From a virus (Duplodnaviria > Heunggongvirae > Uroviricota > Caudoviricetes): a DNA stretch of 9,858 nucleotides. The position numbers and the translations under genes are program-made. How positions within the stretch are numbered: position 1 is the first letter of the stretch; every line of letters starts with the position of its first letter. Below are positions 5,739 to 6,087 of this stretch, piece after piece. Location of the stretch: the IMG/VR virus record IMGVR_UViG_2711768004_000003. One strand, 5' to 3'. The notes under the pieces are model-generated. The model was not told the DNA's origin and made no database searches. It saw only the letters and a program-made list of their open reading frames with translations.

Positions 5739-5813
5739 TGGAGCGGGCAGCGGGAATCGAACCCGCATCATCAGCTTGGAAGGCTGAGGTAATAGCCATT
5801 ATACGATGCCCGC
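5739..5813 (-). tRNA. tRNA-Gly (anticodon UCC)
   Basis: 75-nt cloverleaf folded by hand from the reverse complement: GCGGGCATCGTATAATGGCTATTACCTCAGCCTTCCAAGCTGATGATGCGGGTTCGATTCCCGCTGCCCGCTCCA. 7-bp acceptor stem, anticodon loop CTTCCAA, T-loop TTCGATT, encoded CCA. From memory it looks glyT-like. Confidence 0.9.
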
Positions 5814-5816
5814 ATA

Positions 5817-5892
5817 TGGTGCCGACTACCGGAATCGAACTGGTGACCTACTGATTACAAGTCAGTTGCTCTGCCTGCTGAGCTAAGTCGGC
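5817..5892 (-). tRNA. tRNA-Thr (anticodon UGU)
   Basis: 76-nt cloverleaf: GCCGACTTAGCTCAGCAGGCAGAGCAACTGACTTGTAATCAGTAGGTCACCAGTTCGATTCCGGTAGTCGGCACCA. Perfect acceptor, D and anticodon stems; anticodon loop CTTGTAA; encoded CCA. From memory it looks thrU-like. Confidence 0.9.
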
Positions 5893-5894
5893 GC

Positions 5895-5971
5895 TGGCCC
5901 ACCACCGAGGACTCGAACCTCGCACCGTCAACTTAGAAGGTTGATGCTCTATCCGGATGAGCTAGTGGTGG
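5895..5971 (-). tRNA. tRNA-Arg (anticodon UCU, argN-like)
   Basis: 77-nt cloverleaf: CCACCACTAGCTCATCCGGATAGAGCATCAACCTTCTAAGTTGACGGTGCGAGGTTCGAGTCCTCGGTGGTGGGCCA. All four stems are perfect, anticodon loop CTTCTAA, encoded CCA, unusual C1:G73 first pair. Confidence 0.88.
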
Positions 5972-5972
5972 T

Positions 5973-6049
5973 TGGTGGCCCTTGCTGGACTTGAACCAGC
6001 GACCTGGCGATTATGAGTCGCTCGCTCTGACCAACTGAGCTAAAGGGCC
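5973..6049 (-). tRNA. tRNA-Ile2 (anticodon CAU, lysidine type, ileX/ileZ-like); naive tools would call it tRNA-Met
   Basis: 77-nt cloverleaf: GGCCCTTTAGCTCAGTTGGTCAGAGCGAGCGACTCATAATCGCCAGGTCGCTGGTTCAAGTCCAGCAAGGGCCACCA. Anticodon loop CTCATAA. Acceptor and T arms resemble E. coli ileX rather than elongator or initiator Met. Confidence 0.82.
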
Positions 6050-6058
6050 GGAGGCAGA

Positions 6059-6087
6059 ATAATAACCATATGTCATCACATCTGCAA
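6059..6087 (-). promoter_or_regulatory. Candidate sigma70 promoter for the tRNA cluster
   Basis: On the minus strand: -35 TTGCAG (plus 6082-6087), 17-nt spacer, -10 TATTAT (plus 6059-6064), ending 9 nt upstream of the tRNA-Ile 5' end. Confidence 0.45.

Follow-up and report, generated by a model that had tools for sequence, protein, structure and literature searches.

tRNA genes near the late antiterminator of lambdoid phages

Genes for tRNAs located downstream of the late antiterminator gene Q have been described in the lambdoid phages SfI, Sf6, ST64T, PS3 and phage 21; they have been proposed to act as a codon supplement, and a bias towards the codon ACA has been reported for SfI (PMC3636060). 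All five phages share with the locus considered here the position close to Q and the presence of a Thr(UGU) gene, a likeness by description and not by sequence (PMC3636060). In SfI the partner of Thr is Asn, whereas the partners found here are Ile2, Arg and Gly. The Thr tRNA of phage 21 has been reported to resist P2-OLD (PMC12445682), whereas the one found here has an anticodon arm of the host type. Other related systems are the ileZ-argN-argO cluster of the Stx phage Stx2a_F349 (AP012530), located, like the present array, just downstream of Q and provided with the same promoter-like element; the chromosomal operon thrU-tyrU-glyT-thrT-tufB of E. coli, Shigella and Salmonella, in which Thr and Gly have the same relative order; and the arrays of the ETEC/E. 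coli prophages vB_EcoS-689R5, PhiR47_1 and PPompW.

The DNA analysed here is a stretch of 9,858 nt (in what follows, the window) of the IMG/VR virus record IMGVR_UViG_2711768004_000003, assigned to the Caudoviricetes. It carries four tRNA genes in the order Ile2-Arg-Thr-Gly, which probably constitute a small, self-contained tRNA operon of the Q-to-lysis type, adding four scarce decoders. The operon is a known and widespread prophage feature, intact here in a dead prophage of Shigella sonnei.

When the array is set against that of Stx2a_F349, its Ile2 gene is 96% identical to ileZ and the gene in slot 2 shares the argN scaffold (83%), but the latter combines UCU with G73 instead of UCG with U73, Thr and Gly are found instead of argO, and no stx operon lies downstream; the window thus lacks the three-gene order ileZ-argN-argO, its third and fourth slots being occupied by Thr and Gly. 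With respect to the host operon, the Thr and Gly genes match their counterparts at 74/76 and 75/75 positions, but tyrU, thrT and tufB are absent from the array, and the host spacers (TCAAGTCC, a 116-nt spacer and AGATGT) contrast with the 3-nt TAT of the window. The ETEC/E. coli prophages have the same four slots, spacers, promoter element and Thr-Gly pair as the window; in these Ile2-Lys(UUU)-Thr-Gly arrays, however, the anticodon loop of slot 2 is CCUUUAA (with C33) instead of CUUCUAA, and Thr is exactly thrU, whereas the Thr of the window has C16 and C20.

Structure of the array and its genomic context

Exactly four tRNA genes are called by ARAGORN in the window, all on the minus strand, and each of them is matched by the Rfam family RF00005 at 56-70 bits (gathering score 29; E-values from 3e-10 to 3e-14). 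In the order of transcription they are tRNA-Ile2 with the anticodon CAU (5973..6049, 70.5 bits, called Met/Ile2 cat by ARAGORN), tRNA-Arg with UCU (5895..5971, 56.4 bits), tRNA-Thr with UGU (5817..5892, 69.8 bits) and tRNA-Gly with UCC (5739..5813, 64.9 bits), separated by the spacers A (1 nt), GC (2 nt) and TAT (3 nt), respectively. All four score above the gathering threshold, have their anticodon at position 34/35 in the ARAGORN calls and end in an encoded CCA, as elongator tRNAs do. The first-pass annotation of this DNA, made by a model from the letters alone, had noticed four packed tRNAs with spacers of 1-3 nt, which is upheld by ARAGORN and Rfam, and the prediction run that it proposed as a check has ARAGORN folding all four. 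Its interval, 5739-6087, proved too long: the tRNAs occupy it up to 6049, while 6050-6087 is promoter-like sequence and not tRNA, 6087 being the position where a conserved -35-like hexamer starts. The strand of the array, minus, was absent from that annotation.

The genes around the array lie on the minus strand as well, and their Pfam families were read from the products of loci 100% identical to the window. The upstream part comprises, in this order, a DnaB-type helicase gene, a small ORF, RusA and the Q-family late antiterminator gene (7283..7690), an ORF whose product carries PF06530 (Phage_antitermQ) and whose relatives are annotated as 'antiterminator Q family protein'. A promoter scan places a pR'-like promoter at 7278-7249, leading into a short RNA of the isrK family (region with promoter 7166..7278; Rfam isrK, 77.5 bits; terminator 7187-7171). 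A C4-like antisense RNA is found between isrK and the ORF6N-domain gene (6239-6802, 187 aa), which lies upstream of the tRNA array. On the other side of the array come a masked stretch (5325-5675, given as N and unreadable), a phage-21-type class II holin gene, a SAR-type lysozyme gene and Rz/Rz1, followed further downstream by HNH, the small and large terminase subunits, a 60-aa ORF and the portal gene. The holin gene, first of the lysis genes after the array, is a partial ORF in the window (5143..5358) with its 5' end in the masked stretch; the complete holin has 71 aa and PF04971 in the 100%-identical loci. In near-identical relatives the masked region corresponds to 651 nt and not to 351, and no convincing gene was found in these 651 nt, which contain one 98-aa ORF without a Pfam match. 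The first-pass annotation had counted by hand at least ten A-ending codons in an 'adjacent moron'. A moron in the masked stretch is excluded; the count fits the upstream ORF6N gene of 187 aa (ATA 2, AGA 1, ACA 6, GGA 2). The position of the array between Q and the lysis cassette recurs in at least five different phage backbones.

A truncated prophage of Shigella sonnei

Six chromosomal loci of the S. sonnei type, reached by way of exact matches to the TerL protein, agree with the window, with 100% identity on one side of the masked stretch and up to 99.98% on the other; they are 98.6-100% identical to the window, five of the six at 99.96% or more, and one of the chromosomes is that of Shigella sonnei UKMCC1015 (CP060117). 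No end-to-end match to the window was found among complete E. coli genomes, where the best reach 92-96%. In the matching genomes IS elements are located just upstream of the helicase gene and just past a truncated portal gene, with host genes beyond them. The prophage in S. sonnei is therefore a dead, lambda-like, IS-bounded remnant, about 10 kb long, that lacks the head and tail genes. Since the prophage is truncated, there are no head or tail genes left for the tRNAs to serve, and a present benefit would be possible only for the cell.

Origin of the four tRNAs

The tRNA with anticodon CAU shares 74 of 77 positions with ileZ (96%), 71 of 77 with ileY (92%) and 54 of 78 with metT (69%). Its acceptor stem is that of ileY (G-C, G-C, C-G, C-G, C-G, U-A, U-A) and includes the pairs C4-G69 and C5-G68, while metT differs in having U4-A69 and A5-U68. 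C4-G69 and C5-G68 are the pairs by which TilS distinguishes Ile2 from tRNA-Met, as reported in published work on this enzyme. Identical copies of the gene are labelled tRNA-Ile by PGAP. The identities, the acceptor pairs and the PGAP label agree in assigning this tRNA to the Ile2 type, as the first-pass annotation had held; it is accordingly of a kind predicted to require lysidine at C34 for reading AUA.

The same annotation had likened the Ile2/Arg pair to the ileZ-argN-argO clusters of Stx phages, and both relatives can be recognized, but the Arg gene cannot simply be called argN and a homologue of argO is absent: among the four tRNAs the best identity to argO is at most 74% for any of them, and 60% for Arg. 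The identity of the Arg gene is 64/77 to argN (83%) and 73% to the host argU; the gene carries the pair C1-G72, A20 and the discriminator G73 together with its UCU anticodon, whereas argN of Stx2a_F349 has UCG and U73. The anticodon loop, CUUCUAA, is the same as in argU. On the argN-type scaffold the anticodon is UCG in the Stx phage but UUU in prophages of ETEC, and the Arg gene is, as far as its sequence tells, a sibling of argN rather than argN proper. The tRNA is predicted to decode AGA and, weakly, AGG.

The Thr gene matches thrU of K-12 at 74 of 76 positions, both changes being T>C in the D-loop (U16C and U20C), and its anticodon arm (ACUGA / CUUGUAA / UCAGU) is that of thrU; the Gly gene is identical to K-12 glyT over all 75 positions. 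The view in the first-pass annotation that Thr and Gly are nearly identical to host thrU and glyT is hence borne out. Thr(UGU) should decode ACA, and Gly(UCC) should decode GGA and GGG. The origins of the array appear to be mixed, Thr and Gly being precise copies of host genes and Ile2 and Arg deriving from the phage ileZ/argN lineage. No host spacer or flank sequence was found around the Thr and Gly genes of the window, the identity to the host being confined to the boundaries of the mature tRNAs, which rules out a capture of the host operon with its flanks. The 3-nt spacer, the absence of tyrU, thrT and tufB and the lack of host flanks mark the Thr-Gly pair as a copy derived from the host locus rather than the locus itself.

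A putative promoter of the array

Upstream of the Ile2 gene, a sigma-70-like promoter on the minus strand (6059..6087) consists of the -35 hexamer TTGCAG (6087-6082), a 17-nt spacer and the -10 hexamer TATTAT (6064-6059), and a GC-rich stretch of 9 nt (6058-6050) separates it from the 5' end of Ile2. The same site is flagged by a consensus promoter scan. Both hexamers are retained, with the same spacer length and the same 9-nt distance, in 66 of 68 arrays and in eight of nine diverged upstream families, that is, families less than 80% identical to each other, the Stx phage included. Conservation is 0.90 in the hexamer columns and 0.57 elsewhere, and the spacer and flanks vary freely. From this comparative footprint we infer that the TTGCAG/TATTAT element is the putative promoter of the array itself; a conserved and dedicated promoter could permit expression of the array in the lysogen. 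One use of following up the first-pass annotation is that this conserved, dedicated promoter-like site has been pinpointed.

Between the ORF6N gene and this element, a hairpin followed by a T-run resembles an intrinsic terminator (6142..6163, minus strand); its 8-bp stem has five G-C pairs and is followed by TTTTATACCT (five T in the scored stretch). A hairpin with a T-run is found at the equivalent place in the four closest arrays, with different stem sequences, and is missing or poorly aligned in the sequences from ETEC, phage 689R5 and Stx2a. Downstream of the array, the near-identical relative L014 has terminator-like hairpins at 7400-7419 and 7755-7781, one of which, with a stem of 10 bp, precedes the holin gene by about 40 nt; its counterpart in the window is masked. 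With a promoter-like site of its own, a terminator-like hairpin upstream and, in the relative, two more downstream, the array would be an autonomous promoter-tRNAs-terminator unit within the late operon.

Distribution and variants of the array family

Of 5,426 complete E. coli genomes, nine contain the exact array at a query coverage of at least 80%; the prophages that carry it there differ in their Q and head genes. At least 120 IMG/VR contigs have a Thr-Gly junction of the phage type, which was also found in E. coli, S. flexneri (one genome having three copies), Citrobacter braakii and Enterobacter hormaechei. Among 88 loci surveyed that share this junction, the commonest form is Ile2-Lys(UUU)-Thr-Gly (38 loci), followed by the form of the window, Ile2-Arg(UCU)-Thr-Gly (22), while 14 loci have Thr-Gly only and 14 have odd slot-2 calls or other forms. 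The presence of Thr and Gly, taken in the first-pass annotation for a departure from the usual arrangement, is in fact common, and the exact order of the window recurs in 22 of the 88 loci. A further phage candidate, the 'Tyr-Thr-Gly' of H30, turned out to be the chromosomal thrU operon of Salmonella.

The slots differ in how much they vary. Gly has the glyT sequence in 75 of the 88 loci and Thr that of thrU in 56, the C16/C20 allele of the window being found in 19. Slot 2, on the other hand, combines a single scaffold with an anticodon loop that is hypervariable and most frequently that of Lys(UUU), with an unusual C33. All four alleles of the window are the commonest Arg-type alleles on viral contigs, and for this reason no decay is visible in them. 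As a discovery the array carries little weight, since tRNAs downstream of Q are documented in lambdoid phages and identical arrays are already annotated in RefSeq.

Codon usage

The four anticodons had been related in the first-pass annotation to an enrichment of A-ending codons. ATA accounts for 11-13% of the Ile codons of the window against 5.0% in a sample of 34 K-12 genes, used as reference in place of the whole genome (p 0.0005-0.008), and ACA for about 26% of the Thr codons against 14.4% (p 0.0008-0.002), the ranges for these two codons reflecting two alternative sets of gene boundaries. Against the same sample, AGA makes up 7.4% of the Arg codons versus 4.7% (p 0.15) and GGA 14.9% of the Gly codons versus 12.2% (p 0.34). 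The excess of the four codons sits in the holin, lysozyme, ORF6N, HNH and helicase genes and was not found in the genes for TerL (13.8 per 1000) or the portal (26.4 per 1000). The claim thus holds, relative to K-12, for ATA and ACA, but neither for AGA and GGA nor for TerL and portal; moreover, phage lambda is equally enriched.

Taken together, the four codons amount to 37.8 per 1000 in the window, 42.6 in lambda and 22.1 in the K-12 genes, and to about 46-49 in array-bearing phage contigs (per-codon values summed). No tRNA genes were found in lambda, whose enrichment is at least that of the window for each of the four codons, and array-bearing contigs, contigs with Thr-Gly only and lambda are indistinguishable in codon use when one crude ORF caller is applied throughout. 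An equal enrichment in a phage devoid of tRNAs means that the codon excess, though real, is common to lambdoid DNA in general and leaves the composition of the array unexplained. ATA is as frequent in phages with Thr-Gly only as in those bearing Ile2, and the contigs with an Arg-type array are only slightly higher than those with a Lys-type array in AGA (OR 1.20, p = 0.04) and AGG (OR 1.47, p = 0.0002), so that codon usage was rejected as the determinant of array composition. Besides, Lys(UUU) reads the major Lys codon, and a Lys tRNA in slot 2 therefore cannot be a compensation for rare codons; its presence in the commonest relative shows that the array family was not shaped by codon supply alone. 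The tRNA array is not specially tuned to the genes of its phage, and codon enrichment by itself is insufficient to explain it, which is a further use of the check.

Possible role of the array

AUA, AGA, ACA and GGA are seldom used in core genes and frequent in DNA of phages or of other horizontal origin, and the K-12 chromosome has one gene each of thrU, glyT and argU and two for Ile2. On this background the array would work as a supplement of scarce decoders in the following way. The array would be transcribed from the sigma-70-type promoter TTGCAG-17 nt-TATTAT and, in an inducible phage, also by Q-modified polymerase starting at pR', which would read through the upstream terminator, across the array and into the lysis genes. 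RNase P would then cleave the 5' end of each tRNA, the residual 3' ends of 1-3 nt would be trimmed to the encoded CCA by host exonucleases, and host enzymes would modify and charge the tRNAs, including the formation of lysidine by TilS at C34 of Ile2. The products would add copies of four low-copy isoacceptors for AUA, AGA, ACA and GGA.

A first alternative, which we consider rather unlikely, is that the array is a neutral relic, weakly expressed or silent and of no benefit, carried along in a young remnant of the clonal S. sonnei. The prophage has indeed been truncated by IS elements on both sides, and the S. sonnei loci are so nearly identical (98.6-100%) that they give no power to detect selection. 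Decay is seen among relatives as well: in RMDEC332 a glyT scaffold bears the anticodon UAC and its 3' end is damaged, and the loops of several slot-2 copies are 5-6 nt long. The four genes of the window and their promoter, however, are the commonest alleles on viral contigs, and the persistence of glyT in 75 and of thrU in 56 of the 88 loci, while the flanks diverge, points to purifying selection or gene conversion acting on the family.

A role in counter-defence, in which the tRNAs would be nuclease-resistant stand-ins sustaining translation in the face of nucleases of the P2-OLD, PARIS, PrrC or RloC type, appears improbable for the array as a whole, although it has clear precedents. P2-OLD kills by cutting the tRNA-Thr(UGU) of the host within its anticodon stem, at paired CNG motifs; the cell is rescued by phage Thr(UGU) tRNAs whose stems are altered or shortened, the one located near Q in phage 21 included, while an extra copy of host thrU gives little or no protection (PMC12445682). 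Similarly, PARIS cleaves tRNA-Lys, and a variant from T5 rescues (PMC11464382). These precedents, a phage tRNA-Thr(UGU) and the T5 tRNA-Lys variant, speak for such a role (PMC12445682, PMC11464382), but in the Thr of the window the anticodon arm is that of thrU: its 5-bp stem is complete and the two CNG motifs (C28-U-G30 and C40-A-G42) are present. Neither of the features by which P2-OLD is evaded, an altered paired CNG or a shortened anticodon stem, was found in it by comparison with thrU. The Thr of the window is then host-type, presumably sensitive to P2-OLD and not an evasion variant, a point that also came out of the check. Gly, being 100% glyT, is not a resistant variant either, and on these sequence grounds counter-defence is rejected as the main explanation for both Thr and Gly.

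The other two slots call for a separate consideration, as the bodies of Arg and Ile2 differ from their host counterparts. The hypervariable anticodon loop of slot 2, mostly Lys(UUU) with C33, is not explained by codon supply, which leaves room for a defence-related role of this slot, and the Arg body, 73% identical to argU, could evade a nuclease that recognizes stems. Against this, the loop CUUCUAA is shared with argU, and the anticodon-nuclease literature examined describes no nuclease directed at Ile2, Arg(UCU) or Gly(UCC); we know of none that would make a defence role of slot 2 specific to Arg(UCU).

It is very improbable, finally, that the tRNAs serve as RNase P sites parting leader RNAs (isrK, C4-like, ORF6N mRNA) from the lysis mRNA, for, although the array is part of the late transcription unit, directly between the regulatory module and the lysis genes and its 1-3 nt spacers would imply processing by RNase P only, many lambdoid phages, lambda among them, do without such an array, a processing signal would need neither four anticodons nor exact identity to glyT nor the Ile2 acceptor determinants, and the array has a promoter-like site of its own.

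The array in the Shigella sonnei cell

If the array is a supplement of scarce decoders, its present consumers could lie outside the prophage. It is conceivable, albeit unlikely, that a tRNA unit with its own promoter has outlived its phage and is kept by S. sonnei for the codon demand of its AT-rich virulence plasmid, in a form of lysogenic conversion through tRNA supply, Thr and Gly being held identical to thrU and glyT by repeated gene conversion or having been copied from mature tRNAs. Within this proposal, gene conversion or copying of mature tRNAs would follow from the host match of Thr and Gly inside the mature boundaries and its absence outside them. Should expression of the array aid the translation of AT-rich virulence genes, prophage remnants would contribute to Shigella virulence via tRNA supply; an aid of this kind to virulence gene expression has reportedly been raised earlier for Stx phages. 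The virulence-plasmid genes are much the larger consumer of the four codons in S. sonnei: in ten virulence genes of pSS_046 these codons reach 95 per 1000 and 47% of the Ile codons are ATA, the usage of the four codons being about fourfold higher in virulence-plasmid genes than in chromosomal ones.

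Variation of the tRNA Genes in Related Loci

A single argN-like scaffold, marked by the acceptor pair C1-G72 and a conserved T-arm, is found throughout the second position of the array (L011 3095-3171, L007, L006 2595-2671 and the 88 surveyed loci with a phage-type Thr-Gly junction, L019-L107). This scaffold carries different anticodon loops: CUUCUAA, giving Arg UCU; CUUCGAA, giving the UCG of argN; CCUUUAA, giving Lys UUU with a rare C33; and loops shortened to 5-6 nt, which are called by ARAGORN as Phe(aaa), Leu(taa), "ag" or "tg". Switching of the anticodon is one possible source of this variation, an arms race with nucleases that attack anticodons another.

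In most of the arrays reported by ARAGORN as containing only Thr and Gly genes, a conserved sequence element, about 65-70 nt long, beginning with GGTTCCGAGGG and ending with CCCGAGGAACCA, lies directly 5' of the tRNA genes, from which it is separated by a 2-nt spacer (for example around 75 nt 5' of the Thr gene in L036, L043, L046 and L050). The element is preceded by a TATTAT-like box. Since its termini pair in the manner of an acceptor stem with a terminal CCA, the element may be a non-canonical tRNA-like RNA occupying the first two positions of the array.

In the Thr(UGU) genes of E. coli VL40 (L009 6329-6404) and RMDEC332 (L010 3270-3345), UCAUC replaces UCAGU in the 3' half of the anticodon stem, with loss of the C40-A-G42 motif and of two base pairs. 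Both the loss of this motif and the loss of stem base pairs have been tied to resistance to P2-OLD, a nuclease cutting host tRNA-Thr(UGU) (2025 paper, PMC12445682), so these copies, decayed in appearance, may represent an evasion allele against this nuclease. The fourth gene of RMDEC332 (L010 3349-3419), annotated as tRNA-Val, is a glyT scaffold whose altered anticodon loop gives UAC; its 3' acceptor strand is one base short owing to a deletion, and it is without CCA. The probable reading is a copy in decay; were the tRNA expressed and charged, it could act as a missense decoder. Finally, in one viral contig (L097 2545-2621) the Ile2 scaffold carries the anticodon TAT rather than CAT, and such a tRNA would be expected to read AUA without lysidine.

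RNA Elements Between Q and the ORF6N Gene

Four Rfam matches, all on the minus strand, lie between the late antiterminator gene Q and the ORF6N gene: an isrK-family RNA (7242-7166, 77.5 bits), a C4 antisense RNA (7140-7057, 71 bits), the a1/b1 target element of the latter (7255-7203) and an sRNA-Xcc1 match (6923-6840, 77 bits). Together they look like an antisense-controlled antirepressor module of the P1 immI or Gifsy-1 isrK type, apparently placed straight after the late promoter, and the short pR'-tR' transcript may be the isrK RNA.

Flanks of the Remnant and the Masked Stretch

In S. sonnei-type chromosomes matching the window (L013-L018), the host genes adjoining the remnant differ by strain, either bamE-recN-nadK-grpE or raiA-pheA-tyrA-aroF, and the junctions are occupied by IS3, IS4 and IS21-type elements, which together indicate IS-mediated rearrangement around the locus.

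The 351 N at 5325-5675 of the window correspond to 651 nt in near-identical S. sonnei-type chromosomes (L014 7205-7855); either the mask is not length-preserving or the window's strain has a 300-nt deletion. The relatives' 651-nt stretch contains no convincing gene, its one 98-aa ORF being without a Pfam match, and includes two terminator-like hairpins.
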